A DNA stretch of 64,000 nt from Verrucomicrobiaceae bacterium (GCA_019694165.1 JAIBCL010000031.1:7708-71707); one strand, 5' to 3'. Counted from the first letter of the stretch, positions 29,915 to 62,838 are shown. Translations and numbers: made by a program. The notes: a model not told the origin generated them from the letters alone.

Positions 29915-30096
29915 CTCAGAACGGGACAGGCAGGCTGCGGAGCGGACGGGAGCTGCGGACGGCGGTCCGTTTGACGGACTCGCTGAAAAGCAGAAGTCGC
30001 AATTGAGTGGCCGGCCCGATACTTCCATGTATCCGGTGTCGTTCGTGGTTCCTCATGCCTGGATTTGGGCTGAGTTCGGCCGCCGCCCCTCGTCCT

Positions 30097-31932
30097 ATGT
30101 CCGAAGACGCCATCGCATCTCCGCTGCCGCGCCTGCTGCACTTTGCACGGCGGCACTGGCGCATGGCGTTGGCACAGCTCGCTCTCGCGGTGGCCGGCAC
30201 ATGCCTGATCCTCGTGTTTCCCGCCGTGGTGCAATGGTTCATCGACGACATCATACCGAACAAGAAGACCGATGAGCTGTACCGTGCCGCGGGACTTGCC
30301 GCCGCGGCTTTTGCCGTGCGTGAGTTGCTCTTCGCGTTCCGGACGCGGCTGAACACGGTCTTCGAGCAGCGCATGATCTTCGACCTGCGCGGCCAGCTTC
30401 ATCGGAAGGTGGCGCATCTGCCAGTCGCCTGGTTCGACAAGCAGAGCACGGGCGACATCATGACGCGCATGGCCGACGACGTGCCGGCGACGCAGCGCGT
30501 CATCCTCGAAGGCATCGAGCAGGGCGTGACGTCGATCCTGCAAATCATCATCAGCGCCGTGATGATGCTCGTCACCAACTGGCAGCTTGCGCTCTTTGTC
30601 ATGATTCCCACCCCATGGATCGCCGCAGGCGGATTCATCTTCTCCCGCTGGGTGCAGCCGAGAGCGAAGCTGGCCCGCGAAGCCTCCAGCCGGATGAACG
30701 CCCTGCTGCACGACACCGTCACCGGCATCCGCCAGATCAAGAGCTACACGGCGGAGGACGGCAAGCAGCGCGAGTTCAATGTGGCGAGCGATCACCTGCG
30801 TCGCGCGCAGACGCGGCTCATGACGGCGTGGGCTGTTTACAGCCCGCTCATGACCTTCTTCGGCAGCATGGGACTCGTGCTCTTGCTCGGCGTCGGCGCG
30901 TGGGGCTGCATCCACGGCAAGTGGTCGCTCGGCGAGCTGCTGAAGTTCATCTTCCTCATCGGCTTCTTCTTCGAGCCGATCTCGCGTCTGCACGGCGTGA
31001 ACCAGACGCTCTCCAGCGGACTCGCGAGCGCGCGGCGAGTCTTTGAAGTGCTCGATGCAGGCGGCGAGGAAGATCTGGTGAACGGTTGTGCGCTCGAGCG
31101 CGCTGAAGGTGCCATCGTCTTCAAGAACGTCACGTTTGGCTACGCGGACCGGCCTGTGATCCACGACGTGAACTTGCGCGTCGAGCCGCGCCAGACCGTG
31201 GCAATCGTCGGGGCCACCGGCTCCGGCAAATCGACTCTCTTTCAGCTCCTCGCCCGCTTCTACGACCCGCAGCGGGGCGAGATCGACATCGACGACGTGC
31301 CGATCACCGAATACAGCCGTGCTTCGCTGCGTGATGCCATCGGCTACGTGACGCAGGACGCCTTTCTCTTCGCCGGCACGATCCGCGACAATCTGAGCAT
31401 CGGCAAAGCTGACGCTGCCGAAGATGAAATGTGGAGCGCGCTGCGGCTCGCGTGCGCGGAGGAGTTCGTGCGCGCACTCGGTGCAGGAGCATCCGCCAAG
31501 GATTCGAGGCCGGACGCCGCGATGTCATCGAACAACGCGAGCGATACGCCGGAACTCTTGCGAGCTCCCCTTCAGTCCGGACTCGATTCCGAAGTCGGCG
31601 AGCGCGGCATCCGCCTCAGCGGCGGCGAGCGTCAGCGCATCGCCATCGCACGAGCCTTTTTGAAAAACGCGCCGATTCTCCTGCTCGACGAAGCAACCTC
31701 CGCCGTGGACACCAAGTCCGAGCATCTCATCCAGCAGGCGATCAATCAGCTCCGCCAAAACCGAACCTGTCTCGTTATCGCACATCGCCTTTCCACCGTG
31801 GTTGCTGCCGATCAGATCTACGTCATGCGTCTCGGACGCGTGCTCGCGCATGGAAAGCACCACGAACTCGTGAAGACCTGTCCCTACTACGCCGAGCTGG
31901 CAGCGCTGGCGTTTGACCAGCCGGAGGCTTGA
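30097..31932 (+). CDS. ABC transporter, fused permease + ATPase half-transporter of the exporter type (MsbA/ABCB-like)
   Basis: N-terminal 6-TM exporter domain (MSEDAIASPLPRLLHFARRHWRMALAQLALAVAGT...). Walker A GATGSGKST (31211-31237), signature LSGGERQRIAIARAFL (31615-31650), Walker B/D-loop ILLLDEATSAVD, H-loop AHRLSTV. The start is placed at the ATG at 30097; the track ORF begins at 30007, but the first 30 codons look non-native. Confidence 0.9.
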   Translation: MSEDAIASPLPRLLHFARRHWRMALAQLALAVAGTCLILVFPAVVQWFIDDIIPNKKTDELYRAAGLAAAAFAVRELLFAFRTRLNTVFEQRMIFDLRGQLHRKVAHLPVAWFDKQSTGDIMTRMADDVPATQRVILEGIEQGVTSILQIIISAVMMLVTNWQLALFVMIPTPWIAAGGFIFSRWVQPRAKLAREASSRMNALLHDTVTGIRQIKSYTAEDGKQREFNVASDHLRRAQTRLMTAWAVYSPLMTFFGSMGLVLLLGVGAWGCIHGKWSLGELLKFIFLIGFFFEPISRLHGVNQTLSSGLASARRVFEVLDAGGEEDLVNGCALERAEGAIVFKNVTFGYADRPVIHDVNLRVEPRQTVAIVGATGSGKSTLFQLLARFYDPQRGEIDIDDVPITEYSRASLRDAIGYVTQDAFLFAGTIRDNLSIGKADAAEDEMWSALRLACAEEFVRALGAGASAKDSRPDAAMSSNNASDTPELLRAPLQSGLDSEVGERGIRLSGGERQRIAIARAFLKNAPILLLDEATSAVDTKSEHLIQQAINQLRQNRTCLVIAHRLSTVVAADQIYVMRLGRVLAHGKHHELVKTCPYYAELAALAFDQPEA

Positions 31933-47167: not shown

Positions 47168-47448
47168 GCAAATCCGCTGGGACGAACTGACCCGGAATCC
47201 GTGAAGCAGGTGCCACGCTCGCGGCCGGGACCGGCCAAGGGGTAAGGGGTTGCCGTCCGGGTGATGTCTTCGATGGCATGTGTGCGGCCGAGCAACGATG
47301 TGGCCACTTCGTTGCGCCAGCCCTGGCTCATCAATCCCGCGTGCGATCTCCATGGAGCATGACGATTGCCCTGTGGCGGGTTTTCTGATAGGCTCGGCAG
47401 AAATTCTTGCCGAAAAAGACAGGGCCAACTCCTCCGCCAGCACTCGTG

Positions 47449-50400
47449 ATGAAAACCCGTCCGTCTCCCTGCTTTTCCGTCTGGATGCCGTTGATGATGG
47501 CCCTGGCGGTGTTGCTTCTGGTCATTTGGTCCATGCGGCCATCGGACGAAACCAGACCGACGGCAGCGGAAACCGGTGCCCCGCCGGTGGCTCAAGCTGG
47601 CACCGGCGGAGGCAGGACGATCATCCAGCGCGCCAGAAAACGCATGGCTGCCGTGGATCTCCGTGAAGCTGGTGATGGAGGACAGTCGGGCGCGAGGCGC
47701 GAGCAGGCATTGGAGGCGTTGCGACGTGAGATTCCTGGCGTGCAGGTGGAGTTTGACGCGATCACCGGCGCGCCAAAGCACATCATGGCGGCGGGCAGAT
47801 TTCTCGCGGCAGCGGGGACGGGGGCCGCTGATCCGCACGCGCCGGTGCGCGCGTTCGTGGAGCGGCACGCGGCGCTCTTCGGCCACGACGCGGCGGAGCT
47901 GGCGCGGGGCCGCGCGCGGGTGACGCGCGAGGATGTGGCGGCGCACAACGGGATGCGCACGGTGGTGTGGCAGCAGGAGGTGGCGGGGCTGCCGGTGTTT
48001 GAGACGATCTTGAAGGCGAACGTGACGAAGGACGGTGATCTCATCACGCTCGGCAGCCACTTCATGGCGGATGCGCCGAAGGCTGCTGAAAAACAGGCAC
48101 GGCTCGTGTCGAGTCCGCCGCTGAATGCACCACACGCGCTGGCGGCTGCGGCGGCGAGCCTCGGAGGTGCGCTCGACTTGGCGCAGGTGACCTCACGGTC
48201 CGCGCAGCAGGGCGCGGAGCAGGCGCAGAAGCTGGAAGCACCCGGATTCACCGACACGACCGCGCACCTCGCCTGGGTGCCGATGGATGAGAGCACGCTG
48301 AGGCTGGCCTGGCAGATCGAGACATTCAGCCTCCAGCAGAATGAGATGTTTCGCCTGCTGGTGGACGCGGAGGACGGGAGGATTCTCGTGCGCCAGAGCC
48401 TCACCACGGACATCAGCAACGCGACGTACCGCGTGTATGCGAAGCCCGCCTTCCAGCCGTATGACAGCCCCACGCCCTTTTCTCCAGGCCATCTCACGCC
48501 ATCAAGCGCACAGCCCGCAGAGGTGAGCCGCAATGCGGTCACGCTCGATGCGGTGAATACGACCGCGTCTCCGAACGGCTGGATCGACGATGGCGGCACG
48601 CAGACGCTGGGCAACAACGTCGATGCGCACACGGACACAAACGCGGACAATGTCGCCGACCTGCCACGCCCGACCTCGGCCACGCGGAACTTTGACTTCG
48701 CTCTGGATCTCACGCAGGCGCCCTCGACCTACCGGGACGCGGCGGTGACGAACCTCTTCTACCTCTGCAATTTCATCCACGACCAGTACTACTCGCTCGG
48801 CTTCACTGAGAGCGCGGGCAATTTCCAGACGAACAACTTCGGCCGCGGCGGCAACGGCAACGATGCGGTGCAGGCAGATGCGCAGGACGGCAGCGGCACG
48901 AACAACGCCAATTTCTCCACGCCGTCTGATGGCTCGCCCGGACGCATGCAGATGTACGTGTTCACCGGCCCGACGCCGGACCGCGATGGCGACCTCGATC
49001 ACGAGATCGTGATCCACGAGTACACGCACGGCCTGAGCAACCGCCTTGTCGGCGGCGGCGTGGGCATGAGCCAGAATCAATCACAGGGCATGGGCGAGGG
49101 CTGGTCGGATTTCTACGGGCTGTGCCTGTTGAGCGAGGCTGGCGACGATCCGAACGGCAACTATGCGGCGGGCGGCTACGCGACGAAGGACTTCTCCGGC
49201 CTGACGCAGAACTATTATTTCGGCATCCGGCGCTATCCGTATTCGACGGACCTGCTGAAAAATCCGCTGACCTTCAAGGACATCGATCCGGCGCAGGCCA
49301 GCACTCACGCAGGCATCGCGCGCAGCACGATCATCGGCAGCACGGCCAACGAAGTCCACAACGAAGGCGAGGTGTGGTGCGTGACGCTGTGGGACATGCG
49401 CGCGAACTTGGTCGCGAAGCACGGCTGGGCCGCAGGGAACCAGCTCGCGCTCCAGATCACGACTGACGCGATGAAGCTCTGCCCGGCGAATCCGAACATG
49501 CTGCAATCCCGCGATGCCATCGTGCAGGCCGATCTTGTGAGCAACGCGGGTGCGAACCGCAATGAAATCTGGGCCGCCTTTGCCAAGCGCGGCATGGGCG
49601 CGAGCGCCACCTCACCCGCAAGCAGCACGACCTCGGGGCTGGTGGAGGCGTTCGATGTTCCGGACAATCTCGGCGTGTCGCCGGCCGGCGCACTCGCGGC
49701 CACGGGTCTGATCGGCGGCCCGTTCACGCCCGCGAGCCGGGTCTTCACGCTGCAAAACTCGGGCGCGGCCTCGGTGAACTGGACGGCCTCGGTGAATCAG
49801 CCGTGGCTCTCGCTCACGGGCGCGGCGGGCGCGCTGGCGGCGGGCGCGAGCACGACCGTGACGGCCTCCTTCAACGCGGCGGCCAACGCCCTGGTGGCCG
49901 GCTCCTACGCCGCCACGGTCACCTTCACAAACACGACGAGCGGCGCGGTGATCACGCGCGGCGTGTCGCTGACGGTCGAGCCGCAGCGCATCACGATTTT
50001 CTCGGAGCCGTTCGACGCGGCCACGCTCGGCGCGGCGTGGACGGTGACGGGCACCAGCACCTACCGCACGCAGGTGACGGCGCTCAACGGACCGCGCGCG
50101 TCGAATCACCTGACGATGGACTCGTCGGTGGACGCCAGCTACGCGCGCAACGAGGCCACGCTCACCGTGAACCTGGCGGGCCGGAGCGATGTGGTGCTGA
50201 GCTTCTGGGCCAAGAGCTTCAATGACGAGGCGAACGGGCCGCCCTCCAGCCCGTTCACCAACGGCGCCGACTTCGACGGCGTGGCGGTGAGCGCGGACGG
50301 CGGCACGACATGGTGGGAGGTGCAGCCGCTGCGCAGCCTCACCTCGACGTGGACGAAGTACACCGTCGATCTCGACGCGGCCATCGCGGCGCGCGGCCTC

Positions 50401-53400
50401 AGCTACGGCGCGAATTTCAAGATCCGCTTCAATCAGTACGACAATTACACCATCTCCACCGACGGCATCGCCATCGACGACATCCTGGTGGCGCAGACGC
50501 TGAACAACAACCTGGCGCTGGCATTGCCCGCAAGCGTGGTGACGGAGGGCGCGTCCGACATGACCGCCACGCTCACCGTTTCTCCAGCGCAGGCCGCCGC
50601 GCTCACGGTGAATCTGGCGGCGAGCCGCGCGGACGTGATGGTGCCGGCCTCGGTGGTGGTCCCCGCGGGCGCGACGCAGGCGACCTTTCCCGTGACCATC
50701 GTGGATGATGCGCTGCTGGACGGCTCGCAGGCGGTGACGATCACGGCGACGGCGCCGACCTTCAGCAATGGCAGCGCGACGTTGACGGTGGACGACAATG
50801 AGACGGCCGTGCTGGCGCTCGATGCGCCTCTCAATGGCAACGAGGGCAGCTCTCCCATCGCCGCCACCGTGAGCGTCGGCGCGGCGGTGGATGTGGACGT
50901 GGTGGTGCGGCTGGACACTTCCAATCCGCAGGCCAGCATCCCGCCGTCCGTGACGATTCCCGCCGGACAAAGCAGCGCGGAGTTTTACATCACGCTGGTG
51001 AATGACGGCCTCATCAATGGCACGCGCTCCGCCACCATCACTGCCAGCGTGACAGGCTGGACGGCGGGCACGGACACCATCAGCATCCTCGATGACGAGA
51101 CGGCCACCGTCGCGCTCGTGCTCAATGACACGACCAGTGAAGGATTGACCGGCACGCCGCAGATCGGCACGCTCACGCTCGGCGGCACGGCCGTCACGCC
51201 GGTGGAGGTGACGCTAATCTCCAGCGACACCAGCGAGCTGACCGTGCCCGCGACGATCACCATCGCCGCCGGGCAGAGCAGCGCCGCGCTGCTCGCGACG
51301 GTGATAGACGACGCGGACCTCGACGGCTCGCAGACGGTGACGGTGAGCGCGGCAGCCTTTGGCAATGCGGCGGTGACGGACACCATCGACGTGCGTGACA
51401 ACGACGCGGCCAGCTTTGTCATCGGCGCGGTGGCCAGCCCGCAGCGCGAGATGCAGGCATTCCCGCTCACGATCACCGCGCGCGATGTGAACGGCGCGCT
51501 GGTGCCGTCGGTGGCAGGGCCGTGGACTCTCAGCGCGGCGGGCGATGGCGGCGCGGCGGTGCTCAACGCGCCGACGGCCGCCTTCGTGAACGGCGTATGG
51601 CAGCAGAACGTGAGCATCGCCGCGCCGGATACGAACGTGCGCATCACCGTCACCGGCCCGAACGCGACGGCGCAGAGCAACGCCTTCGACGTGACCATCG
51701 GCCCGCGCATCGGAGTGGCACCGGCTGCCTTCACGCTGGACATTCCGCGTCAATCCAGCAAAACGCGCGCGCTGACGATCACCAACAACGGCCTGGGCGC
51801 GATGATCTGGAGCGCGGCGGGATCGCAGAGCTGGCTGACCTGCACGCCTGCATCCGGCAGCGTGGCGCAGGGCCAGTCCGCCACGGTGACGGTGAGCTTC
51901 AATGCCGCGACACTCGCGGAAGGCACCGCGGCGGCGCAACTCAACGTGACCTCAAACGACCCGATCACGCCCGCCGTGGCCGTGCCCGTGACGCTGAACG
52001 TGACTGCGCCCGTAGCCAGCTTCGTGTGGGACACGGTGCCTTCGCCCCAGCGCGTGAACGCGCCCTTTCCTGTGACGGTGACGGCGAAGGACGCGAGCGG
52101 GGCGACGGTGACGAACTTCGAAGGAACGGCGTCGCTTTCTGTGCTGGACGTAAATGGAGGCACCGAGGTGGTCACCACCACGGGGACTGGGTCAAACCAA
52201 GGTGGTGGTCCCGTGACAGCAGGCTTCAATGTTCTGCGGCAGCAGTTCATCTTCACGCCAGCAGAAGCCGGGCCGGCTGGCTTGATTCAGAGAATCCGCT
52301 TTCATGTGTTAACTGCATTTTCGTCGGGGCTTGCCAACTACACCATCCGCCTCAAGCACACCAATTTGACCACCAACTCGACGTGGCAGCCGTCCGGCTG
52401 GACCGTCTGCTACGCCCAATCCACCGGCCCGGTTTCCTCGCCCTGGCATGAGTTTGTCCTCACAACACCCTTCGCATATGATGGTACGAGCAATCTGATG
52501 GTGGATGTCAGCTATGCGACTGCGATAATGCCCGTCACAGGTTCCTATAGCAATGGGACCTATGCGAGCACCAATCGGGCTCTGTATTCAATGATCAATA
52601 TGCCTGGTTCTGACCCGCTCACTTGGAGTGGCACGGAGGGCAATGCCTCATCCCAGACCTGGCTGCCCAATTTTCAATTTGTCACCCTGGTGGGTGGATC
52701 GAATGCAGCCGCTGTGCTGCCAACGCTGACAGGCGCGTTTAGCTTGGGAGTGTGGAGCGGCCAAGTGCGACTCGATCGCGCCACGCCTGACGTGAAGCTC
52801 ATCGCCTTGATGTCGGCGCCATCGACGGGGTCGGGACTGACGAATTCCTTCGCGGTGACCGCCGACGGCACGCTCGGCATCACGCTTGCCTCCCAAGTGA
52901 GCGAGGGAGCGGGAACGCTCGGCGGCACGGTGACGATCACACCCGCGCCGTCGGCGGACGTGGAGGTGACACTCAGCTCCAGCGTCGCGAGTGCGGCGGT
53001 TCCGGCGGCGACGACGGTGACGGTGCCTGCCGGCAGCACCAGCGCGCCTTTTACTCTCAACATCATCGACGACACCGCGCTCGACGGCCCGCAGACGACG
53101 CAGATCGGCGCGGTGGGCGCCGGCTATGTGGCGGTGAGCACGCCGCTCGTGGTGGCGGATGACGAGGGCGCGGTGCTCGCGATCAACCTCGCGCAAAGCA
53201 GCTACGCCGAGGGCGCGGGCGTGATCTCCGGCACCATCACCAGCGACACCGCGCCGACAGTGCCCGTGACCATCGCGCTGACTTCCAGCGACACGACGGA
53301 GGCCACGGTGCCCGTATCCGTGACCCTGGCGGCGGGCGCCACCAGCGCGGCGTTCAGCGTGACCATCGTCGATGACACGCTGGTGGACGGTGATCAAAAC

Positions 53401-56400
53401 CTCGTGCTCACCGCCGCCGTCGCCGGCTGGGCCAGCGGCACGAAAAACCTCACTGTCACCGACAACGAGGCGCGCACGCTCACCTTCACCGGCGTGCCCG
53501 CGAGCATCAGCGAGGGCGCGGCCACGCTGGCCACACCAGCCGTCGCGCTTACGGGCCAGGCGGTGGCGCCGGTCGTCGTCACGCTCACTTCCAGCGATGT
53601 GACCGCGCTGCCGAGCATCAGCGTCACCATTCCCGCCGGCGCATCGTCCGCCGTGTTTGATCTCGATCCGGTGGATGACACGCTCTTCGACGGCACGCAA
53701 AACGTCACGCTCACCGCCTCCGCCGCAACGTTCAGTGACGCGACGGCAAACGTGGCCGTGCTCGATGATGACGTGCATCACTTCGCGCTCTCCGCCGTGC
53801 CCAGCCCGCAGAAAGAAGGCGCGGGCTTTGCATTCACCGCGACGGCGAAGGACATCAACGATGCGACGATCACCGCGCCCGTCGGCGGACCGGTGAACCT
53901 GAGCGCGGCGGGCGATGGCGGCGCAGCAAGCGTGCTGCCCGCGGTGCTCGCGCCGTTCACGGCCGGCGTGTGGACGGGCCAGGTGCGCGTGATGGCGCCG
54001 GACACGAACGTGCGACTCACCGTGACCTCGCCGACGGCCTCCAATCAATCCAACGCCTTCGATGTCGGCATCGGGCCGCGGCTTGGCGTGAATCCCACGA
54101 GCTACGCCGTGAGCGTGGCGCAAAACACCACAAAGACGCGTTCGCTGACGCTGAACAACACGGGTGCCGAGCCGCTGAACTGGAGCGCCACCACCACGGG
54201 CGACATCGACCCCCCGCTGGCGACGGCGCTGGCCGGGTTGAACGCGCGCCACGCTGAGATCACCGCGCTGATTCCGAACCGCTTTGATTTCACCGAAGGC
54301 GTGACCGGCACCTACATCAGCAGCGGCGGCGGCACGCACATGTATCACAGCGGGAACTACCTCAGCACCTCCCTCGCGCCATCGACGTTCATCAATTACA
54401 GCGACAACACGATCGCGGCGGCGGCGGCCACGTTCGGAGCAGGCGGGCAGTACTTCACGCGCAAGGTGCCGGGCCTTTTTGTGCTCGCGGCGGACATGAG
54501 CGGCGTGAGCAGCTTCACCATCAGCGGCAACACGGGGAACCACACCGGCCTCGTCGAAGGCTCCGTGCTGACGGCGACGCGCGGCGCGAAGACTTACAAG
54601 GGCTTCGTCAAACGCGCGCGCGGCGACGTCTCCTATGGCGCGGAGTCCATAAATCATCTCATCATCATCGAGAGCGACGCGGCGGCCTCGCACTCGTGGT
54701 CCGCTACGGTAGATTCAGACAACCATGTGCTCACGGGCATCGGCGCGCGCACGCGGCTCTATTACCTGCTGTATTCATCGGTGAGCGGCGGCAACATCAA
54801 TGACACGATCACGCAGACGATCTTCGACAAGTTCCTTGATGTAATCGGCGCCGGGAGCTGGATGACGGTCACACCCTCGTCCGGCACGGTGGCGGCGGGT
54901 GGCAGCCAGAATGTGAGCGTGGCTTTCAACGCCGGCAGTTTGAACACAGGCGTGTACAACGGCGGCATCTCGATCACCAGCAATGACGCTCTCACCTCGC
55001 CGCTGACGATCCCCGCCACGATGACGGTGACGCCCGGCATCCATCATTTTGAATGGGACACGATTCCTTCGCCGCAGGTGGTGAACGCTCCGGTCGCCGC
55101 AACGGTCCGAGCCCGGGATGCGGTGAACGCGCTGGTGACCGACTTCGATGGCATGGCAGCGCTCACGGCACTGAACACAGGTGCGGCGGGAGAGGCTACG
55201 ACGGGAGCGGGCACGTCCTCCACTTATCTGATACATGACACGAGCTACCAGGTGCATCGCACTCAGTGCATCTACACTCCGGCGGAGGCCGGTCCGGCGG
55301 CGCGGCTCAGCGGCCTGGCCTTTGACGTGGCCACTCTCGGCTCGCCGGCCGCCAGCAATTTCACCATACGCCTCAAGCATACGGTGCGCGCCAACTACAG
55401 CACGGACGCCTCATGGGAGGCTTCCGGGTGGACGACGGTCTTCACCGGCAGCAAGACGCTGGCCGCCGGCCTGAACTATTTCACCTTCTCCACTCCGTTC
55501 GATTACAACGGCACGAGCAATTTGATGGTGGACATCAGCTTTGTGAACACCACCTACAGCGGCTCTTCCTACGTCCGTTACACCACGGCAACATCCTCGC
55601 GCACGATTTACGGTGGAGCCTATTCGGGTGATCCACTCGCCTGGAGCGGCGCTGGTTCCTCCAGCACCGCGCTGCCGAACCTGCGGCTGGTGCGCTCAGG
55701 CGTTCCAGCCTCAGTTTCGCCTGTCGCCACCGGCGCGTTTGTAAATGGTGCGTGGACGGGCGACATCCGCCTTGGCACTGCCGGCGCTGTCGTCGTGACG
55801 GCCAGCGCGGGCGCCGCCACGGGTGCGAGCAATGTCCTGACCACCACCTCGTCCAGCACGCTGTCGCTTTCGATTCCCGCGAACGTGACGGAGGGACAGG
55901 GCACGCTGCTCAATGCGGGCACGGTCACGGCGGCCAGCGCGCCCGCCTCGCCGCTGACCATTTCTTTGGAGAGCCTCGACACCTCGGAGATCACGCTGCC
56001 GGCCACCGTCACTCTGCCAGCCGGCCAGGCCAGCGTGGCGTTTGATGTCACCGTGGTGGACGACCCGCTGCTGGATGGCCCGATCACCGTGCAGATGCGC
56101 GCGTTGGCGGTCGGCTATCCGACCGTGACCGCTACGACCACTGTGGCCGACAATGACACCACGACGGTGACGCTGACGCTGCCCGCGAGCATGACCGAAG
56201 GCACGACCAGCACGGCGGGCCAGGCGAGCGTGCAACTCGGGGCCCCGGCGGCCGAACCCCTCACCGTGGCCTTGGCCTCCTCACTCACCAGCCGGCTGAC
56301 GGTCCCGGCGTCGGTGACGATTCCAGCCGGGCAAAGCTCCGCCGCCTTCACCCTCACCGCCCCGAACAACACCATCATCGACGGCACCCAGACCGCCACG

Positions 56401-59400
56401 ATCACCGCCACGCTGGCGGGATCGGTGCCTGGAACCGGAACCGTGCAGGTGATCGACAATGAGAACACGAACCTCACGTTTTCCTCCGGCTACAGCAGCG
56501 TGAGCGAGGGCGCCGCGCCGCTGACGAGCGGCGGCTATGTGTACCTTTCTGGCACCGTAACCAGCGCGCTGACCATCAGCCTGGCCTCCAGCGACACGAC
56601 GGAGCTGACCTTGCCCGCCACGATCACCATTCCCGCCGGCAGTTCGCAGAGCAGCTACTTCGCGTTTACGCCGGTCAATGACACGCTGCAGGACGGCTCG
56701 CAGACCGTCACGCTGACGGCGTCCGCGTCTGGATTCACCAGTTCGAGCAGAACGATCACGGTGCTCGATGATGACGTGCATCATTTCACCGTCTCCACGG
56801 TGGCCAGCCCGCAGGTGAAGAACGGGCCGTTCAACGTCACCTTCACGGCGAAGGACATCAACAATGTCACCATCTCCGCCTATGCCGGCACGCCGACGCT
56901 CACCGCCGCCGATGGCGTGACGCCGCTGACCGTCACGCCCGCGAGCCTCACGGGGTTCAGCAGCGGTGCAAAGACCCAGAGCGTCATGGTCGGCGCGTTC
57001 GCCACCAGCGCGGTCTTGACGCTGACCGATGCCGTCACCGGCGGCAGCGGCAGCAGTACTGCCTTCGCCGTCGGCGCGGGCAGCTTGCATCATTTCGCCT
57101 GGGACACGGTCGCGTCGCCGCAGATGCTGAACGCCGCCTTCGGAGCCACCCTGTTTGCCAGGGATGTTTATGAAAACACCATCTCGAATTTCAGCGGCAC
57201 CGCTGGCCTGAGTGCTGCCAGCGCTTACTCCCTGACGACGGCGGGCACCGGCACCTTCACGGACTGGTATCCCTTTGGCGGTTACTACCCGCAAAACCGC
57301 TGCCAGATGATCTACACGCCTGCGGAAGTGGGCGGCACGGCGCGGAAACTGCAGGCGCTGGCCTTCGACATGACGACGCCAAACACCTCGTATCCCGCCG
57401 TGACGCTGTCCAACTTCACCATCCGCCTGAAGCACACCACCAAGACCGATTACAGCACCTCCGCCGTGTGGGAGACCGCCGACTGGACGACGGTGTATCA
57501 AGGCACGGTGAACATGAACCAGACCGGCTGGCGGCAGATCAATTTCACCACGCCCTTCGACTACAATGGCGCGGACCGCCTGATGGTGGACATCAGCAGC
57601 AGCAACTCGGGCTTCATGAACCGCATCGAAGCGCGGTCCGCCAATGTTTCTCCTTACCGGGTTCTTTACAGCTTCACCAGCAGCGCGACGCCGCCGACGC
57701 AGTGGACGGGAACCGCGAACGCTTATGCCTATCTGCCAAACCTTCGGCTCGTCTCGTTTCAAAACGTGCCGATGATTCCGGCGCAGGCCACGGTGTTTTC
57801 TGCGGGGGCTTGGAACGGGCAGGTCACGCTTCAGGCTGCGGCCAGCGGCGTGAGGCTGCTGGCTTCCAATGCGGCCAATGGTGTCGTGACCAATTCGAAT
57901 CCTTTTGATGTCAGCTACTTCGGCGACCTGAGCGTCACGCTGCCGGCCACGGTGGTGGAAACCGCAGGCAGCATCAGCGGCACGGTCAGCGTCTCCGTCG
58001 CTCCTTCGTCCGATCTGACCGTGAGCCTCGCGTCGAGCGATGCCACCGAACTGCTGCCCGCCGCGGCATCGGTCGTCATTCCGGCGGGCCAAACGTCGGC
58101 GCCCTTCACGGTCACGGTGCTCGATGATGCGGATCTTGATGGCGACCAGTCCGTGCAGATCACGGCGGCGGCGGCCGGTTATCAGACCGGATCGGCATCC
58201 GTCGCCGTCAAGGATGATGAAACCACGGTGATCACGCTCGCCGCGCCGGCAGCGATCAATGAAAACCAGGGCACGCTGGCAAACGCCGGGACCATCACGC
58301 TGGGCACCGTGGTCACTGCGCCGGTGACCGTCCTGCTTGCATCGTCGGACACAACGGAACTGACGGTGCCGGCCTCGGTGGTGATTCCGGCGGGAGCGTC
58401 GGCCGTCTCCTTCAGCATCACGGCCGTGAACGACACGATCATCGATCTCGACCAAGCCGTCACTCTGACCGCCAGCGTGGCCGGGTGGACGGCTGGCGCG
58501 GCCCTGGTCACAGTGACGGATGATGAACCGAGGAATTTGTCATTCGCCTTCACGCAGAGCGCCACCGAGGGCGATGCGGTGCTGGCCGCCACCGTCTCGG
58601 CTGGCAAGGTGATGGGCTATGATCTGACGGTGAGCCTTGCCTCCAGCAAGACTGGCGAGGCGACGGTGCCCGCCACCGTCGTCATCCCCGCCGGCCAGCA
58701 AACTGCTTCATTCTACATCGCGATCGTGGATGACGCGCTGGCTGACGGCGCGCAGACCACGTCGATCACAGCCACGGCACCGGCCTTCTCTGCCGGCTCC
58801 CGCAGTCTGACGGTGCGGGACAACGAGCCGCATCATCTGGACATCAGCGCCATTTCCGGCCCGCGGACGAGAAACGCGGCTATTCCGGTGACCATCAGCC
58901 TGATGACGATTGATGGCACACTCGTCGCGAACTTTGCCGGCACCGCCGCTCTCGTCATCAACAGCACCGGCGGCCCGCTGGGAATGTCGCCCGCCATCAC
59001 GGGCGCTTTCGTGGGAGGAGTGTGGTCGGGTGATGTCACCGCCACGGACGCGGGCACGGGCGCGGTGCTCACCGCCGCCATCGCGGGCGGCGTCGCCGGG
59101 AGCAGCAACAGCTTCGACGTTCTCGCCCACGGCGCGCTCGCCGGACTAGAGTGGTCGCCGATCTCGCCTACGCAATACCCGAACGTGCCGGTGCCCGTGA
59201 CGATCACCGCCAGGGATGCCGCGGGCAATGTCGTGACGGATTTCGACCAGACGGTGACTCTCACGGCGCCCCTCGGCGCTTCAGGCACTCGAAACGTCGG
59301 CTCGGGCACGACAACCGACGCAGCCCCCATCCACACAGGTTTCCATGATTGCCGCGCTCAGGAAATCTATCTGCCCGGCGAAGTCGGTGGCGCCGGGCGC

Positions 59401-62400
59401 TTCACGTCGCTGGCATTGAACATGACCACTGCCCCGCCGCCGGTGAACCTGACCAACTGGACCATCCGCATGAAGCACACGAGCCGCACGCAGTTCGGTC
59501 CGGCGGCGTCGGACTACATCTGGGAGACGGACGGCTGGACCACGGTCTATTCCAACAGCGTGGCGCTCAGCGGCTTCGCGGGCTGGATCAAGTTCGATTT
59601 CTCCACGCCGTTTGACTACAACGGCACTGACAACCTCCTGATCGATTTCAGTTTCGACAACTCGAGCAAATTCTCGCCCACGACATTCACCTACGTCGCC
59701 GCGACGACGAGAACCGCGGGCCGGCGGATCAGCTACTATTCCGACAGCGGTCACGGTGCGCCGCTCAGTTGGTCGGGTGCCAGTCCCGTCGCGTTCGCCG
59801 ACAGCCGCGTGGCCGATCTGCGGCTCGAGAGCAGCCTCGTGGTGTCCATGACGCCGGCCGTGTCGGGCCAGTTCGTGAACGGCGTCTGGAGTGGCTCACT
59901 CACATTTCCGAGCACGGCCGCCGCCGTGACAGTGATCGCCGCGCACCAGGCTTCGGGTCTGACCGGCGCGTCCAGCACGTTCGATGTCATCGCGCCTCCG
60001 CCCGCGCGGCTGGCCTTCACCGCGCTGCCCGCGCGCGCCGCGGCTGGCGAGCCTTTCGCCGTCACCATCACGGCGCTTGATGCGGCGGGAAATGTCACGC
60101 CCGGTCACACGGCCGCGGCCGCACTCAGCCTGGTGAATCCCGAGAACGTCACGACGACGATCGGCGCGGGACTCTATCCGGGAACCGTGCCGCTCTATGC
60201 GGCGCAGACGGACTGCCGGTCGCAGATCGTTTACAAGCAGCAGGAGCTCGGCGCGGCGCGCCGTCTCACGGGGCTGGCGCTGAACATCGCCACTACGTCC
60301 GCCTTTGTTTACAACAACTTCACTCTCCGGTTGAAGCACACCGGCCGCGCGCACTTCAACACCGCGCCGAGCTGGGAAGGCGCGGGCTGGACCGTCGTCT
60401 GGCAGGGCGCGAAGACCTTTGACACGGCGGGCTGGATCCCCTTCACCTTCTCCACGCCGTTCGATTACAACGGCACGGACAACCTGATGCTCGACGTGAG
60501 CTTCGACAACACGAGCAGCGGCACGAGCGCCTGGCTGCGCAAAGATCCCACCGGCTACGATGTCGGCATGATCTATTACTACTCGCCGTCCGCGGGCGAT
60601 CCGCTGTCGTGGAGCGGCAATTCGGTTTCCACCTTCGGCGCGGTCGAGCGGCCGCAGCTCCGCTTGTTCAGCGATCCGGGCATCACGGTCTCGCCGGCCT
60701 CGACGGGCGCTTTTGTGAATGGCGTGTGGTCGGGCAATCTCACGGTGGTCGGCATGCATCCGGCCGTGGTGCTCAAAGCCGTGGCCGCCGGAGTTTCCGG
60801 CTTGTCCGATCCCATCATGGTCGGATACCCGGCGCCGTCGATGCTGGCGGAGCCAGCCTTCACCGGCGGCGTGACCAATCAGCTCGCCTGGAACCTGCTG
60901 GCCGGTCCGGCGGCGTACACGCTCCAGCGCGACACGGTGCCGTCGTTCACCAATCCCGCGAGCATGACAGGAGTCACCATCGGGTCGGCCACCTTCAGCG
61001 CGTTGCAGGACACGGTGCGTTACTACTACCGCGTGTGTGGTGACTCCGCCTCGCCGCAGCCCGCCGGCTTGAACCAATGGAGCCAGACTTCTTATGCCGA
61101 TTTCGTCGCCTGCACGCACTCGGGCACTTCGGCGGCAGTCTCGCTGCACGACGTAGCCCTCGCCGCCGCATCAACCAGCACCGCCACCTCGACGGAGAAT
61201 TTCGACGGCGGCGGAACGGCCTGGGCCGGAACGATCTTCTCGCAGGCGGGCGGCACGGCGACGATGGATCTTCAGGACATGACCACCGGCCCCGCCGCGA
61301 CGCCGTCGCTGCCGGTGAATACCGGTGGCGACTTCGAAGGCAGGATCGGCAATGCATCGGGCTTCGGCTCCGGCTATGCCCTCCTGCCATCCAGCAACTT
61401 CGCCGACGGCTCCATCGAAGGCTATCTCGCGCCCGAAAACGCGGCTGCCGGGGCTGGCGGGATGGGAGCCTTCATGCTCAGGGCGAGTCCCTCCGCAACC
61501 GGCGGTCTGCAAGGCTACGCTGGCTACGCATCCTTTGGCACCTCGACGGCCTACTTTGGCATCTACGTCGTGGTCAATGGCACAACCAGCACCCTGGGCG
61601 CCGCCGGTTTCTCCACCGCGCTGACGACCGCCGACAATCTCAAGCTCCGCCTGTCTGCGCAAGGCAGCACGCTGACCCTCCAGGCATGGAAGGTGGCCGT
61701 ATCCGGCGGCGTGGTCACGGAAACGCCGCTCGTGCTCGAATCGGGTTCCACCTCGCTCGTGCGGACCGACACGACCTTCGCCTCCGGCAGCGCCGGCGTG
61801 TTCGCCAATGGCACGGCCGTCCGCTGCTATTTCGATGACATCACCGTCACGAGAAATGCGCCAGTGTTCGTGACGTCCGGCGCAGCGAACTCGCCGCTAA
61901 TTGCCCCGCCCTATTTCAAGACCTGGGGCGCCCTCAATTTCACCGGTGACACGAGCGGGTCGGGCACCACGCTCTCGATCGACGTGCTCAATGCGGCGGG
62001 CGGCCTGCTCGCCGCCAACGTCGCCACGGGCACGGATTTGAATGCGCTCCCCGCTGTGGCGCCGCAGCCGGCCATCAAGCTCCGGGCCAATCTGGCCACC
62101 TCCAACAGCGCGAACTCGCCCCGCCTCCGTGACTGGAGCGTGGGCTACGTTCTGAATCCGCCGGCCACGATCTCCAGCGTGTGGTCGAATGTCGTCTCAT
62201 CCACCCAGGACGCCACGCCGCCCGTCATCTCTGCTCCCGATTTGCACACCTCCGCGGGCACCGCCAGCCTCGGTGGCACCGCGCTCGATGCCGTGAGCGG
62301 CGTCGCCGGCGTCACCGTCGCGGGCAATGCTGCCGCCACATCCGACAGCTTCGCAAATTGGAACTCTCCCGTCACCGGCCTCGTCAATGGCGCAAACTCC

Positions 62401-62838
62401 ATCACCGTCACCGCCGCCGACAATGCCGTGCCGCCCAACACCGCCACCGTGACGGCGCTCGTCTTCCGCATCAGCGCGCCATCCGCCGACGCCGATGGCA
62501 ATGGCATCTCCGATCTGCTGCAGCACGCGCTGGCCATTCCGGCGGCCGACCCCGACCCGCTCTCCATGCTGCCGGCCGTCGGCGTGCAGACCGACGGCGG
62601 CACCGGCAAGAAATTCCTCACGCTCGACTATCGCCGTCGCATCCAGCGCGGCGGGCTGACCTACACCGTCGAAACGAGCGGCGATCTGAAGACCTGGACA
62701 GCCGCAGGCGGCGATGCCGTCGAGCAATCCGTCACGCCAGCCGGTGATGGCGTCACGGAAAACGTCCGCGTCCGCATCACGCCCGCGCTCGACCTCGCCA
62801 GTGCGAAGTTCGTTCGCCTCAGCGTGACGGTGCAGTGA
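47449..62838 (+). CDS. Giant (~5130 aa) secreted/surface protein. Signal peptide, FTP/PepSY-like propeptide, M36 fungalysin-type zinc metallopeptidase, then arrays of Calx-beta-like domains, Ig-like and ASH/choice-of-anchor-D-like domains, and five copies of an uncharacterised ~280-aa module.
   Basis: HEYTHG (HExxH, 49015-49029) followed by EGWSDFY (49096) and GEVWC, the diagnostic fungalysin M36 pattern. Calx-beta-like repeats such as LTVSPAQAAALTVNLAASRADVMVPASVVVPAGATQATFPVTIVDDALLDGSQAVTITA...TLTVDDNE. ASH-like domain LTITNNGLGAMIWSAAGSQSWLTCTPASGSVAQGQSATVTVSF. Start placed at MKTRPSPCFSVWMPLMMALAVLLLVIWS (ATG at 47449; the track ORF begins at 47407). Confidence 0.85.
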   Translation: MKTRPSPCFSVWMPLMMALAVLLLVIWSMRPSDETRPTAAETGAPPVAQAGTGGGRTIIQRARKRMAAVDLREAGDGGQSGARREQALEALRREIPGVQVEFDAITGAPKHIMAAGRFLAAAGTGAADPHAPVRAFVERHAALFGHDAAELARGRARVTREDVAAHNGMRTVVWQQEVAGLPVFETILKANVTKDGDLITLGSHFMADAPKAAEKQARLVSSPPLNAPHALAAAAASLGGALDLAQVTSRSAQQGAEQAQKLEAPGFTDTTAHLAWVPMDESTLRLAWQIETFSLQQNEMFRLLVDAEDGRILVRQSLTTDISNATYRVYAKPAFQPYDSPTPFSPGHLTPSSAQPAEVSRNAVTLDAVNTTASPNGWIDDGGTQTLGNNVDAHTDTNADNVADLPRPTSATRNFDFALDLTQAPSTYRDAAVTNLFYLCNFIHDQYYSLGFTESAGNFQTNNFGRGGNGNDAVQADAQDGSGTNNANFSTPSDGSPGRMQMYVFTGPTPDRDGDLDHEIVIHEYTHGLSNRLVGGGVGMSQNQSQGMGEGWSDFYGLCLLSEAGDDPNGNYAAGGYATKDFSGLTQNYYFGIRRYPYSTDLLKNPLTFKDIDPAQASTHAGIARSTIIGSTANEVHNEGEVWCVTLWDMRANLVAKHGWAAGNQLALQITTDAMKLCPANPNMLQSRDAIVQADLVSNAGANRNEIWAAFAKRGMGASATSPASSTTSGLVEAFDVPDNLGVSPAGALAATGLIGGPFTPASRVFTLQNSGAASVNWTASVNQPWLSLTGAAGALAAGASTTVTASFNAAANALVAGSYAATVTFTNTTSGAVITRGVSLTVEPQRITIFSEPFDAATLGAAWTVTGTSTYRTQVTALNGPRASNHLTMDSSVDASYARNEATLTVNLAGRSDVVLSFWAKSFNDEANGPPSSPFTNGADFDGVAVSADGGTTWWEVQPLRSLTSTWTKYTVDLDAAIAARGLSYGANFKIRFNQYDNYTISTDGIAIDDILVAQTLNNNLALALPASVVTEGASDMTATLTVSPAQAAALTVNLAASRADVMVPASVVVPAGATQATFPVTIVDDALLDGSQAVTITATAPTFSNGSATLTVDDNETAVLALDAPLNGNEGSSPIAATVSVGAAVDVDVVVRLDTSNPQASIPPSVTIPAGQSSAEFYITLVNDGLINGTRSATITASVTGWTAGTDTISILDDETATVALVLNDTTSEGLTGTPQIGTLTLGGTAVTPVEVTLISSDTSELTVPATITIAAGQSSAALLATVIDDADLDGSQTVTVSAAAFGNAAVTDTIDVRDNDAASFVIGAVASPQREMQAFPLTITARDVNGALVPSVAGPWTLSAAGDGGAAVLNAPTAAFVNGVWQQNVSIAAPDTNVRITVTGPNATAQSNAFDVTIGPRIGVAPAAFTLDIPRQSSKTRALTITNNGLGAMIWSAAGSQSWLTCTPASGSVAQGQSATVTVSFNAATLAEGTAAAQLNVTSNDPITPAVAVPVTLNVTAPVASFVWDTVPSPQRVNAPFPVTVTAKDASGATVTNFEGTASLSVLDVNGGTEVVTTTGTGSNQGGGPVTAGFNVLRQQFIFTPAEAGPAGLIQRIRFHVLTAFSSGLANYTIRLKHTNLTTNSTWQPSGWTVCYAQSTGPVSSPWHEFVLTTPFAYDGTSNLMVDVSYATAIMPVTGSYSNGTYASTNRALYSMINMPGSDPLTWSGTEGNASSQTWLPNFQFVTLVGGSNAAAVLPTLTGAFSLGVWSGQVRLDRATPDVKLIALMSAPSTGSGLTNSFAVTADGTLGITLASQVSEGAGTLGGTVTITPAPSADVEVTLSSSVASAAVPAATTVTVPAGSTSAPFTLNIIDDTALDGPQTTQIGAVGAGYVAVSTPLVVADDEGAVLAINLAQSSYAEGAGVISGTITSDTAPTVPVTIALTSSDTTEATVPVSVTLAAGATSAAFSVTIVDDTLVDGDQNLVLTAAVAGWASGTKNLTVTDNEARTLTFTGVPASISEGAATLATPAVALTGQAVAPVVVTLTSSDVTALPSISVTIPAGASSAVFDLDPVDDTLFDGTQNVTLTASAATFSDATANVAVLDDDVHHFALSAVPSPQKEGAGFAFTATAKDINDATITAPVGGPVNLSAAGDGGAASVLPAVLAPFTAGVWTGQVRVMAPDTNVRLTVTSPTASNQSNAFDVGIGPRLGVNPTSYAVSVAQNTTKTRSLTLNNTGAEPLNWSATTTGDIDPPLATALAGLNARHAEITALIPNRFDFTEGVTGTYISSGGGTHMYHSGNYLSTSLAPSTFINYSDNTIAAAAATFGAGGQYFTRKVPGLFVLAADMSGVSSFTISGNTGNHTGLVEGSVLTATRGAKTYKGFVKRARGDVSYGAESINHLIIIESDAAASHSWSATVDSDNHVLTGIGARTRLYYLLYSSVSGGNINDTITQTIFDKFLDVIGAGSWMTVTPSSGTVAAGGSQNVSVAFNAGSLNTGVYNGGISITSNDALTSPLTIPATMTVTPGIHHFEWDTIPSPQVVNAPVAATVRARDAVNALVTDFDGMAALTALNTGAAGEATTGAGTSSTYLIHDTSYQVHRTQCIYTPAEAGPAARLSGLAFDVATLGSPAASNFTIRLKHTVRANYSTDASWEASGWTTVFTGSKTLAAGLNYFTFSTPFDYNGTSNLMVDISFVNTTYSGSSYVRYTTATSSRTIYGGAYSGDPLAWSGAGSSSTALPNLRLVRSGVPASVSPVATGAFVNGAWTGDIRLGTAGAVVVTASAGAATGASNVLTTTSSSTLSLSIPANVTEGQGTLLNAGTVTAASAPASPLTISLESLDTSEITLPATVTLPAGQASVAFDVTVVDDPLLDGPITVQMRALAVGYPTVTATTTVADNDTTTVTLTLPASMTEGTTSTAGQASVQLGAPAAEPLTVALASSLTSRLTVPASVTIPAGQSSAAFTLTAPNNTIIDGTQTATITATLAGSVPGTGTVQVIDNENTNLTFSSGYSSVSEGAAPLTSGGYVYLSGTVTSALTISLASSDTTELTLPATITIPAGSSQSSYFAFTPVNDTLQDGSQTVTLTASASGFTSSSRTITVLDDDVHHFTVSTVASPQVKNGPFNVTFTAKDINNVTISAYAGTPTLTAADGVTPLTVTPASLTGFSSGAKTQSVMVGAFATSAVLTLTDAVTGGSGSSTAFAVGAGSLHHFAWDTVASPQMLNAAFGATLFARDVYENTISNFSGTAGLSAASAYSLTTAGTGTFTDWYPFGGYYPQNRCQMIYTPAEVGGTARKLQALAFDMTTPNTSYPAVTLSNFTIRLKHTTKTDYSTSAVWETADWTTVYQGTVNMNQTGWRQINFTTPFDYNGADRLMVDISSSNSGFMNRIEARSANVSPYRVLYSFTSSATPPTQWTGTANAYAYLPNLRLVSFQNVPMIPAQATVFSAGAWNGQVTLQAAASGVRLLASNAANGVVTNSNPFDVSYFGDLSVTLPATVVETAGSISGTVSVSVAPSSDLTVSLASSDATELLPAAASVVIPAGQTSAPFTVTVLDDADLDGDQSVQITAAAAGYQTGSASVAVKDDETTVITLAAPAAINENQGTLANAGTITLGTVVTAPVTVLLASSDTTELTVPASVVIPAGASAVSFSITAVNDTIIDLDQAVTLTASVAGWTAGAALVTVTDDEPRNLSFAFTQSATEGDAVLAATVSAGKVMGYDLTVSLASSKTGEATVPATVVIPAGQQTASFYIAIVDDALADGAQTTSITATAPAFSAGSRSLTVRDNEPHHLDISAISGPRTRNAAIPVTISLMTIDGTLVANFAGTAALVINSTGGPLGMSPAITGAFVGGVWSGDVTATDAGTGAVLTAAIAGGVAGSSNSFDVLAHGALAGLEWSPISPTQYPNVPVPVTITARDAAGNVVTDFDQTVTLTAPLGASGTRNVGSGTTTDAAPIHTGFHDCRAQEIYLPGEVGGAGRFTSLALNMTTAPPPVNLTNWTIRMKHTSRTQFGPAASDYIWETDGWTTVYSNSVALSGFAGWIKFDFSTPFDYNGTDNLLIDFSFDNSSKFSPTTFTYVAATTRTAGRRISYYSDSGHGAPLSWSGASPVAFADSRVADLRLESSLVVSMTPAVSGQFVNGVWSGSLTFPSTAAAVTVIAAHQASGLTGASSTFDVIAPPPARLAFTALPARAAAGEPFAVTITALDAAGNVTPGHTAAAALSLVNPENVTTTIGAGLYPGTVPLYAAQTDCRSQIVYKQQELGAARRLTGLALNIATTSAFVYNNFTLRLKHTGRAHFNTAPSWEGAGWTVVWQGAKTFDTAGWIPFTFSTPFDYNGTDNLMLDVSFDNTSSGTSAWLRKDPTGYDVGMIYYYSPSAGDPLSWSGNSVSTFGAVERPQLRLFSDPGITVSPASTGAFVNGVWSGNLTVVGMHPAVVLKAVAAGVSGLSDPIMVGYPAPSMLAEPAFTGGVTNQLAWNLLAGPAAYTLQRDTVPSFTNPASMTGVTIGSATFSALQDTVRYYYRVCGDSASPQPAGLNQWSQTSYADFVACTHSGTSAAVSLHDVALAAASTSTATSTENFDGGGTAWAGTIFSQAGGTATMDLQDMTTGPAATPSLPVNTGGDFEGRIGNASGFGSGYALLPSSNFADGSIEGYLAPENAAAGAGGMGAFMLRASPSATGGLQGYAGYASFGTSTAYFGIYVVVNGTTSTLGAAGFSTALTTADNLKLRLSAQGSTLTLQAWKVAVSGGVVTETPLVLESGSTSLVRTDTTFASGSAGVFANGTAVRCYFDDITVTRNAPVFVTSGAANSPLIAPPYFKTWGALNFTGDTSGSGTTLSIDVLNAAGGLLAANVATGTDLNALPAVAPQPAIKLRANLATSNSANSPRLRDWSVGYVLNPPATISSVWSNVVSSTQDATPPVISAPDLHTSAGTASLGGTALDAVSGVAGVTVAGNAAATSDSFANWNSPVTGLVNGANSITVTAADNAVPPNTATVTALVFRISAPSADADGNGISDLLQHALAIPAADPDPLSMLPAVGVQTDGGTGKKFLTLDYRRRIQRGGLTYTVETSGDLKTWTAAGGDAVEQSVTPAGDGVTENVRVRITPALDLASAKFVRLSVTVQ
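52015..52860 (+). repeat. Copy 1 of the uncharacterised ~280-aa module (WDT-x-x-SPQ ... C-x-x-I/F-x-TPAEAG ... IRLKHT ... GWT-x-x ... F-x-TPF-x-YDGTSNLMVDVS)
   Basis: FVWDTVPSPQRVNAPFPVTVTAKDASGATV ... QQFIFTPAEAGPAGLIQRIRFHVLTAFSSGLANYTIRLKHTNLTTNSTWQPSGWTVCYAQ ... FAYDGTSNLMVDVSYA. Confidence 0.6.
55040..55860 (+). repeat. Copy 2 of the ~280-aa module
   Basis: HHFEWDTIPSPQVVNAPVAATVRARDAVNALV ... TQCIYTPAEAGPAARLSGLAFDVATLGSPAASNFTIRLKHTVRANYSTDASWEASGWTTVFTG ... FDYNGTSNLMVDISFVN. Confidence 0.6.
57090..57900 (+). repeat. Copy 3 of the ~280-aa module
   Basis: HHFAWDTVASPQMLNAAFGATLFARDVYENTI ... NRCQMIYTPAEVGGTARKLQALAFDMTTPNTSYPAVTLSNFTIRLKHTTKTDYSTSAVWETADWTTVYQG ... FDYNGADRLMVDISSSN. 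Confidence 0.6.
59150..59990 (+). repeat. Copy 4 of the ~280-aa module
   Basis: LEWSPISPTQYPNVPVPVTITARDAAGNVV ... HDCRAQEIYLPGEVGGAGRFTSLALNMTTAPPPVNLTNWTIRMKHTSRTQFGPAASDYIWETDGWTTVYSN ... FDYNGTDNLLIDFSFDN. Confidence 0.6.
60010..60830 (+). repeat. Copy 5 of the ~280-aa module, directly abutting copy 4
   Basis: LAFTALPARAAAGEPFAVTITALDAAGNV ... TDCRSQIVYKQQELGAARRLTGLALNIATTSAFVYNNFTLRLKHTGRAHFNTAPSWEGAGWTVVWQG ... FDYNGTDNLMLDVSFDN. Confidence 0.6.

Follow-up and report, generated by a model that had tools for sequence, protein, structure and literature searches.

Five modules of ~285 amino acids (aa) in a giant M36 metalloprotease of a Verrucomicrobiaceae bacterium are nested domain pairs, in which an autonomous insert of ~180 aa follows the third strand of an immunoglobulin (Ig)-like domain of ~100 aa and divides it in two. 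The gene (47449..62838, plus strand; 5,129 aa counted from the ATG at 47449) lies in a stretch of 64,000 nucleotides (nt) (GCA_019694165.1 JAIBCL010000031.1:7708-71707), which is referred to here as the window and from whose first letter all positions are counted. Structure prediction and fold search placed the insert in a well-known fold class, a galactose-binding-like or lectin-like beta-sandwich (jelly-roll), and we hold the nested anatomy and this predicted fold class jointly with high confidence. As a whole, the data appear best explained by a design in which the inserts are ligand-binding heads on split Ig domains and target the protease multivalently. We give this reading a probability of roughly 0.6, and for the binding function of the inserts taken by itself we put the odds at about even.

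All five modules were found, from the open reading frame (ORF) list and its translation, inside a single mechanically delimited ORF (47407..62838, plus strand; 5143 codons). Residues 15-5143 of this ORF were 100% identical to a deposited protein, MBX7211457.1 ("M36 family metallopeptidase [Verrucomicrobiaceae bacterium]", P0001 in our numbering), whose source is a metagenome-assembled genome. The mechanical ORF starts with a TTG at 47407 and the deposited protein 14 codons downstream, with the ATG at 47449 (MKTRPSPCF...); because the deposited protein is identical over residues 15-5143, the ATG is probably the true start. Motif searches and a MAFFT alignment placed the starts of the copies at aa 1536, 2545, 3227, 3911 and 4199. 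A preliminary sequence-only reading of the window had also reported five copies, with starts that agreed to within a few codons, and the last copy ends at about nt 60849. A hidden Markov model (HMM) was built on the five copies, and boundaries were taken from hmmalign; all of the following features are on the plus strand. Module 1 (52012..52884), matched full length at 404.9 bits, consists of an Ig N half (52012-52158) and C half (52717-52884) enclosing the jelly-roll insert of copy 1 (52159..52716, aa 1585-1770), which carries the family signature R-Q-E-R-K-H-T-N-D-R. Module 2 (55039..55872; 402.8 bits) has its Ig halves at 55039-55179 and 55717-55872, and its insert (55180..55716, aa 2592-2770) was the copy used for modelling and fold search. 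In module 3 (57085..57939; 422.2 bits), halves at 57085-57219 and 57775-57939 flank the third insert (57220..57774, aa 3272-3456), and in module 4 (59137..60015; 416.3 bits) halves at 59137-59274 and 59851-60015 flank the fourth (59275..59850, aa 3957-4148). Module 5 (60001..60849; 423.2 bits) abuts module 4 and has its Ig halves at 60001-60138 and 60691-60849 and its insert at 60139..60690 (aa 4245-4428).

The five modules shared 28-43% identity in pairwise comparisons (BLASTP E 1e-25 to 1e-57), far beyond chance and close to the 30-45% that had been estimated by eye. At the DNA level, similarity among the copies was limited to patches of 33-91 nt at conserved motifs, with 60-89% identity. 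Because it survives only as such short patches, the duplications are, on sequence grounds, old, as had been proposed, and recent slippage was ruled out; an assembly artefact was likewise ruled out, since the whole protein is reproduced at 100% in an independent database record. The motifs TPAEAG/VGG, [FYW]T[IL]R[LM]KHT, GWT[TV]V and TPF[DA]Y[ND]G..[NR]L[ML].D.S were present as described, whereas the cysteine that had been called invariant was not: each copy has one Cys, but in differing alignment columns (GWTVC in copy 1, RTQC in copy 2, RCQ in copy 3 and CR.Q in copies 4 and 5).

The module had been described as an N-terminal Ig part followed by a second block. That division did not hold, because the last ~55 aa of each copy complete the Ig domain. 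The five-copy HMM matched four more sites in the same protein, at which positions 1-46 of the model were followed directly by positions ~226-287. The first of these uninterrupted Ig-like copies (51409..51726, plus strand, aa 1335-1440) gave a split HMM match of 2-46 / 225-287 and aligned end to end with spliced modules at E 1.9e-13. The second (53773..54084, plus strand, aa 2123-2226; split match 1-44 / 227-282) aligned with spliced module 3 at E 6e-15. The third (56776..57078, plus strand, aa 3124-3224) lies directly upstream of module 3; the HMM matched it over positions 1-47 at 27.4 bits, with a weak C half, and it aligned with spliced module 3 at E 6.5e-15. The fourth (58831..59139, plus strand, aa 3809-3911; split match 2-44 / 228-282), directly upstream of module 4, aligned with spliced module 1 at E 5e-14. 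The splicing was performed in silico by removing the middle ~180 residues from each module. After this removal the modules aligned over their entire length with the four uninterrupted Ig domains (31-39% identity over ~100 aa, E down to 6e-15), and the splice junction fell on a loop of 8-10 residues ("AGDGGAA.VL"). The same parts occurred in three states in the best 150 relatives, to which the counts of states and partners given here refer: 228 full modules, several hundred uninterrupted Ig repeats, the longest arrays having about 20 of them, and 68 inserts alone. Inserts also followed one another directly, without intervening Ig halves, in a protein of Planctomycetota (P0078; aa 50-220, 239-415 and 417-623) and in P0094. 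The uninterrupted Ig copies, the alignment restored by splicing and the free-standing inserts of relatives together identify the module as a nested domain pair.

The host domain is of the invasin/filamin type. Its motif "vTvTA.Da.GN.v..f.G" resembles bacterial Ig-like repeats, and it is similar to the Ig-like domains of invasin/intimin, GH2-type proteins and filamin; the resemblance to Big_1-type families is at the level of fold only, no Pfam Big_* model being matched by the interrupted or the uninterrupted form. No Pfam match was obtained for an uninterrupted copy (E<=0.5), nor for proteins with 5-17 such repeats.

The insert of copy 2 was modelled from a 70-sequence alignment with a predicted local distance difference test score (pLDDT) of 95.5 and a predicted template modelling score (pTM) of 0.91, and the model contained about 13 strands. 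AlphaFold2 modelled the whole of module 2 from a 48-sequence alignment (pLDDT 95.8, pTM 0.82), and the analysis of this model yielded jelly-roll domains, as did that of the insert alone. In the whole-module model a single long strand (residues 215-224) runs from the insert back into the Ig domain; this continuous strand and the pTM of 0.82 suggest, from secondary structure only, that the junction between insert and Ig domain is rigid. The fold matches of the insert were the CBM (carbohydrate-binding module)-like domain of the acetylxylan esterase PbeAcXE (score 11.9), the tail spike gp29 of Mycobacteriophage Bxb1 (11.8), a baseplate protein of phage phi812 (10.9), a polyvinyl-alcohol esterase (10.6), PHR domains (9.0) and the lectin-like domain of Cwp84 (8.8). 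Foldseek returned the same set, with template modelling (TM) scores of 0.47-0.57 for the phage, Cwp84 and esterase domains and 0.39-0.45 for the PHR domains. Most of the matched domains are binding modules or have been described as lectin- or CBM-like, so that the predicted structure of copy 2 and its fold search agree with the lectin- or CBM-like fold guessed at from the sequence.

In RTX (repeats-in-toxin) adhesins, ligand-binding domains are held away from the fibre axis by Ig-like "split domains" of the stalk (PMC12077191; PMC10865825), and this arrangement now serves as a criterion for finding ligand-binding domains (PMC12077191). The modules have the feature that defines this class, an Ig-like chain that breaks off, gives way to a complete second domain and resumes afterwards. 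With the adhesins AhLap of Aeromonas hydrophila, FrhA of Vibrio cholerae and MpIBP, the M36 protein shares the plan of a giant surface protein whose stalk has an interrupted Ig-like domain (PMC12077191, PMC10865825). In both, a beta-sandwich domain (CBM-type) buds out before the chain returns to complete the Ig fold. The unit is flanked by extender repeats in the adhesins and by putative extender repeats in the M36 protein, one array of which passes the Pfam LapA-domain model. Unlike RTX adhesins, the M36 protein has no RTX nonapeptide repeats (the sole GGxGxD in 5,143 aa is inside the protease domain), has an M36 protease at its N-terminus, and comes from a host in Verrucomicrobiota rather than Gammaproteobacteria; neither its split Ig domain nor its head matches any Pfam model. 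Families related to RTX or to the type I secretion system (T1SS) were absent from the Pfam matches to the C-terminal 650 aa, although the T1SS signal itself was not searched for.

Considering the split-domain arrangement of RTX adhesins, and that the nearest folds are mostly binding or lectin/CBM-like modules, we propose that the inserts are binding heads. The Ig domain would be a split domain within the stalk of a fibrous giant protein, either secreted or anchored to the cell, and would hold the jelly-roll insert out sideways as a ligand-binding head. Five such heads, spaced along the rod by Calx-beta/LapA-like extender repeats, would together give multivalent binding to a repetitive target, for which a glycan or another polymer on a surface or particle is the most likely candidate. 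Attached in this multivalent way, the M36 zinc protease at the N-terminus would stay on its substrate. Between a glycan and a protein as the ligand, we favour the glycan only slightly.

Sequence conservation bears on whether the inserts bind a ligand at all. The motif set of the module was retained in diverged relatives, represented by 299 inserts non-redundant at 70% identity. In this set the best-kept polar positions (insert numbering) were R27, Q29, E36, T62, R64, K66, H67, T68, N114, D118, R141 and D151, and the kept aromatic positions were Y32, W79, W84, W98, F107, Y109 and W155. All five copies in the window retain R27, Q29, E36, R64, K66, H67, T68 and D118, and copy 5 has Val at R141. 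In a Prevotella-type subfamily, R27, R64, K66, D118 and R141 jointly become L, Y, V, I and Q; since all five switch together, these residues appear to form one coupled, and probably adjacent, cluster.

Several observations weigh against the interpretation of the inserts as ligand-binding heads. The fold matches are remote (8-12% identity, TM <=0.57), and jelly-roll sandwiches can also be structural, as in the capsid proteins among those matches. The sequence itself does not point to a ligand. Since the M36 protein does not belong to the RTX adhesins, the analogy with them would hold at the level of design only; the heads of those adhesins differ in kind and cluster near the distal end, whereas in the M36 protein one kind occurs five times along the stalk. 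The joint swap of the coupled residues from polar to hydrophobic would be compatible too with a structural network buried in the fold, as opposed to a binding site. Such a replacement en bloc in one subfamily is expected of buried residues, and it would be in keeping with structural inserts that have no external ligand, being either side knobs that stiffen or space the stalk or elements that self-associate into a surface layer. The presence of capsid and decoration proteins among the fold matches, and the repetition of the same domain five times without variation, are consistent with this structural alternative. We nevertheless regard it as quite improbable, because many polar and aromatic residues are strongly conserved across the 299 sequences, because the insert is free-standing at the N termini of unrelated multidomain proteins, and because split-domain presentation has so far marked binding domains (PMC12077191).

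A profile search that was exhaustive over 1.84 billion cluster representatives (50%-identity clusters) detected 10,391 proteins at E<=1e-3, 5,402 at 1e-10 and 1,183 at 1e-30. The module is thus not peculiar to this gene; it belongs to a large family. When one genome per species was scanned with the five-copy alignment, 330 loci were found. The best 80 of these were mostly from Verrucomicrobiota (Prosthecobacter, Chthoniobacter flavus Ellin428, Luteolibacter, Akkermansia, Opitutaceae and Rariglobus), and the others were from Planctomycetota, Kiritimatiellia, Victivallales, Hydrogenedentota, Sumerlaeota and Nitrospirales. Chthoniobacter flavus Ellin428 and Luteolibacter yonseiensis (WP_200348980.1) are culturable carriers. 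The family is found mainly in Verrucomicrobiota and other phyla of the Planctomycetota-Verrucomicrobiota-Chlamydiota (PVC) group. A divergent insert-only array was present in Prevotella. The Prevotella-type proteins P0048 and P0100 have 9-14 inserts each, at a repeat spacing of 250-300 aa rather than ~185, and because of this wider spacing a further, undetected host domain may lie between their inserts.

The same N-terminal M36 domain was present in 38 of the 150 best relatives, which indicates from sequence comparison that the giant protein combining M36 with the modules is itself a conserved family. Other partners of the module were S8 subtilase (seen in P0072), beta-helix, C-type and H-type lectins, Calx-beta, DUF11, BACON, PD40 and a type IX secretion system (T9SS) tail. 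These partners are relevant to the alternative that the inserts bind protein, either as exosites at which insoluble substrate proteins or proteins of a prey surface are retained for the M36 domain, or as peptide-binding heads. A protease is the commonest partner in close relatives (M36 in the 38 proteins, S8 in P0072), and some RTX adhesins have peptide-binding domains. On the other hand, CBM- or lectin-like modules lead the fold matches both in rank and in number, and some relatives pair the insert with C-type/H-type lectin domains or beta-helix. The sequence does not discriminate between the two classes of ligand, and on balance we consider binding to protein unlikely.

We also considered that the insert might be a divergent member of a curated family, either Pfam DUF4082 or a CAZy CBM family, and hence nothing new. 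DUF4082 (PF13313) was matched by a single one of 70 family members in a Pfam search (E 0.0018) and by none of the five window copies. About 0.13 matches of this strength are expected by chance over 70 queries, and with the remaining 69 members unmatched we judged this one to be due to chance. Pfam searches of the whole protein and of 22 relatives left the module unmatched. No significant Pfam match to CBM or F5_F8_type_C families was obtained, the sole one being to Cbm74, in 1 of the 70 members at E 0.066. No NCBIfam family corresponds to the module, and that database gave only stray sub-threshold matches, to purE and AmcG within copies 1 and 4, which were far below the cut-offs and were judged to be chance. 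Sequence profiles of the Protein Data Bank (PDB) gave chance-level matches only (E 0.12 to 2.7). Those to MTH1 (E 1), the MATH domain of TRAF6 (E 2.7) and a leucine-rich repeat (LRR) protein (E 0.12), the last resting on a repeated "E.G....L..L.L" pattern, were dismissed as such. The profile of the 70 sequences matched no PDB chain, 7tog and 7tok included, and database names of the relatives were "hypothetical", "uncharacterized" or taken from other domains. The insert thus has the predicted beta-sandwich jelly-roll of a CAZy-type CBM (e.g. CBM32/CBM35/F5-8C) but not the sequence membership of a CBM family. It appears from these searches to be in no curated family and to have no solved close relative, in line with the sequence-only reading, which could not assign the second half of the module to a known family. 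Membership of a curated family is accordingly very improbable.

Among the fold matches, the N-terminal CBM-like domain of FjoAcXE-type acetylxylan esterases (7tog, 7toh, 7tok) is also a multi-sheet beta-sandwich and likewise stands outside the families, as it "does not group with existing CBM families"; Arg and Asn hold a uronic acid in it (PMC9105624). In PbeAcXE, the CBM-like domain contacts methylglucuronic acid via Arg25, Asn26 and Arg139 (PMC9105624). The FjoAcXE-type domain shares 8% identity with the insert (TM 0.47-0.48), with no match between sequence profiles. It packs on the SGNH esterase and is part of its active site, whereas the insert sits inside an Ig domain, well away from the catalytic domain. 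Pfam found no SGNH domain in the M36 protein, which has neither the detectable sequence homology nor the fusion that characterize FjoAcXE-type enzymes. The lectin-like domain of Cwp84, a surface cysteine protease of Clostridioides difficile (4ci7; PMC4089489), shares 8-10% identity with the insert; unlike the insert, it is present in a single copy after the catalytic domain and is neither nested nor repeated. The matched phage tail-tip and baseplate proteins, Bxb1 gp29 (9d93), the Douge central fibre gp20 (8zdp) and the phi812 baseplate DUF4815 protein (9euf), share 8-12% identity with the insert; they are parts of oligomeric tail machines, and a sequence relation to the insert was not detected. 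The PHR domains of MYCBP2 and BTBD2 (3gbw, 3hwj, 3no8) are eukaryotic and intracellular and share 7-10% identity with it. As a tentative and more specific idea, the insert could be the founder of a new PVC-centred lectin/CBM family, in which the R-Q-E-R-K-H-T-N-D-R cluster would be an anion-recognising sugar site. The giant M36 "protease-adhesins" of Verrucomicrobiota might then use five split-Ig heads to latch multivalently onto one particular polymer, for instance a surface glycan of algae, fungi or bacteria. If this were true, split-domain presentation would extend beyond RTX adhesins to a different phylum and class of protein.

The remainder of the protein provides the context of the modules. 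The start MKTRPSPCF is followed by a hydrophobic stretch that resembles a signal peptide or anchor, and then by an FTP propeptide motif (PF07504, 24.5 bits) and the Peptidase M36 (fungalysin) catalytic domain (48514..49608, plus strand; PF02128, 395.5 bits, aa 370-734). A motif search located the zinc-site motifs HEYTH at aa 537 and EGWSD at aa 564, so that the protein has the PF02128 domain, HExxH, downstream Glu (ExxxD) and FTP motif that characterize the M36 family. BACON/HYDIN-type Ig domains follow the catalytic domain, and the rest consists of four arrays of ~100-aa repeats, the five modules and then a C-terminal region of 650 aa. Copies 1-3 are indeed separated by repeat arrays, and copies 4 and 5 back to back, as the sequence-only reading had it, but its identification of the repeats as Calx-beta was too strong. 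Each of the four arrays contains about three repeats, which scored 15.8-17.8 bits with Pfam Calx-beta (cut-off 27), and one array was above the threshold of the LapA-domain model (31.5 bits); "Calx-beta-like" is the strongest label that these scores would allow. The C-terminal 650 aa (60862-62835) had no Pfam or NCBIfam family match. In 14 relatives the C terminus is formed by a nearly complete version of this region (about 540-650 aa), while 4 others have part of it, and because of this conservation it may be a shared anchoring or sorting region.

Two other segments of the protein were noted. A second, different nested domain occupies 54100-55041 (aa ~2232-2545), where an insert of ~215 aa (about 54214-54876) splits a BACON/HYDIN-type Ig domain ("GIGPRLGVNP...LNWSATTTG" ... 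"SWMTVTPSSG...TMTVTP"). Of the 150 relatives with modules, 24 have this insert at full length, or 25 if a truncated one is counted; it had no Pfam match at E<=0.5, and an uninterrupted copy of the same Ig domain is found at aa 1436-1520. A segment of ~150 aa (49984-50436, aa 860-1010) containing "...FSEPFDAATLGAAWTV...DGIAIDDILV" separates the protease-proximal Ig domain from the first repeat array. Pfam gave no significant match for this segment (best Big_5, E 0.019), and judged by eye it looks like another small beta-sandwich domain.

Minus-strand ORFs within the gene, such as 52648-54693 and 56281-58455, were taken as the shadow ORFs usual in DNA of ~65% G+C, since every domain match falls in the plus-strand frame. 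Elsewhere in the window, two further giant ORFs (67-10785 and 10892-29914, plus strand; 3,572 and 6,340 aa) had passenger-associated transport (PATR) repeats as their sole Pfam matches, and a scan with the five-copy HMM did not detect the module in either. They are followed by a gene (30007-31932, plus strand) for an ABC transporter in which membrane and ATPase domains are fused.

In soil, water and guts, Verrucomicrobiota and other PVC bacteria are abundant as degraders of polymers, and to our knowledge their giant surface proteins are almost wholly unannotated. The fold class of the insert and the architectural principle of the split Ig domain are already known, and we do not claim a new kind of biology. 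What is new is a widespread, uncurated insert family, in a phylum and a type of protein for which this design is not known to have been described before. The analysis provides clean boundaries and a confident predicted fold for a domain that occurs in more than 1,000 diverged protein clusters and is unnamed in curated libraries, and a domain-family entry for the insert would be worthwhile. The criterion taken from RTX adhesins, by which binding heads are recognised from a split Ig domain, points to candidate binding domains in a protease outside the RTX adhesins as well. It is predicted from the analysis which ~180-aa pieces should be expressed in order to learn to what these giant proteases may be targeted.

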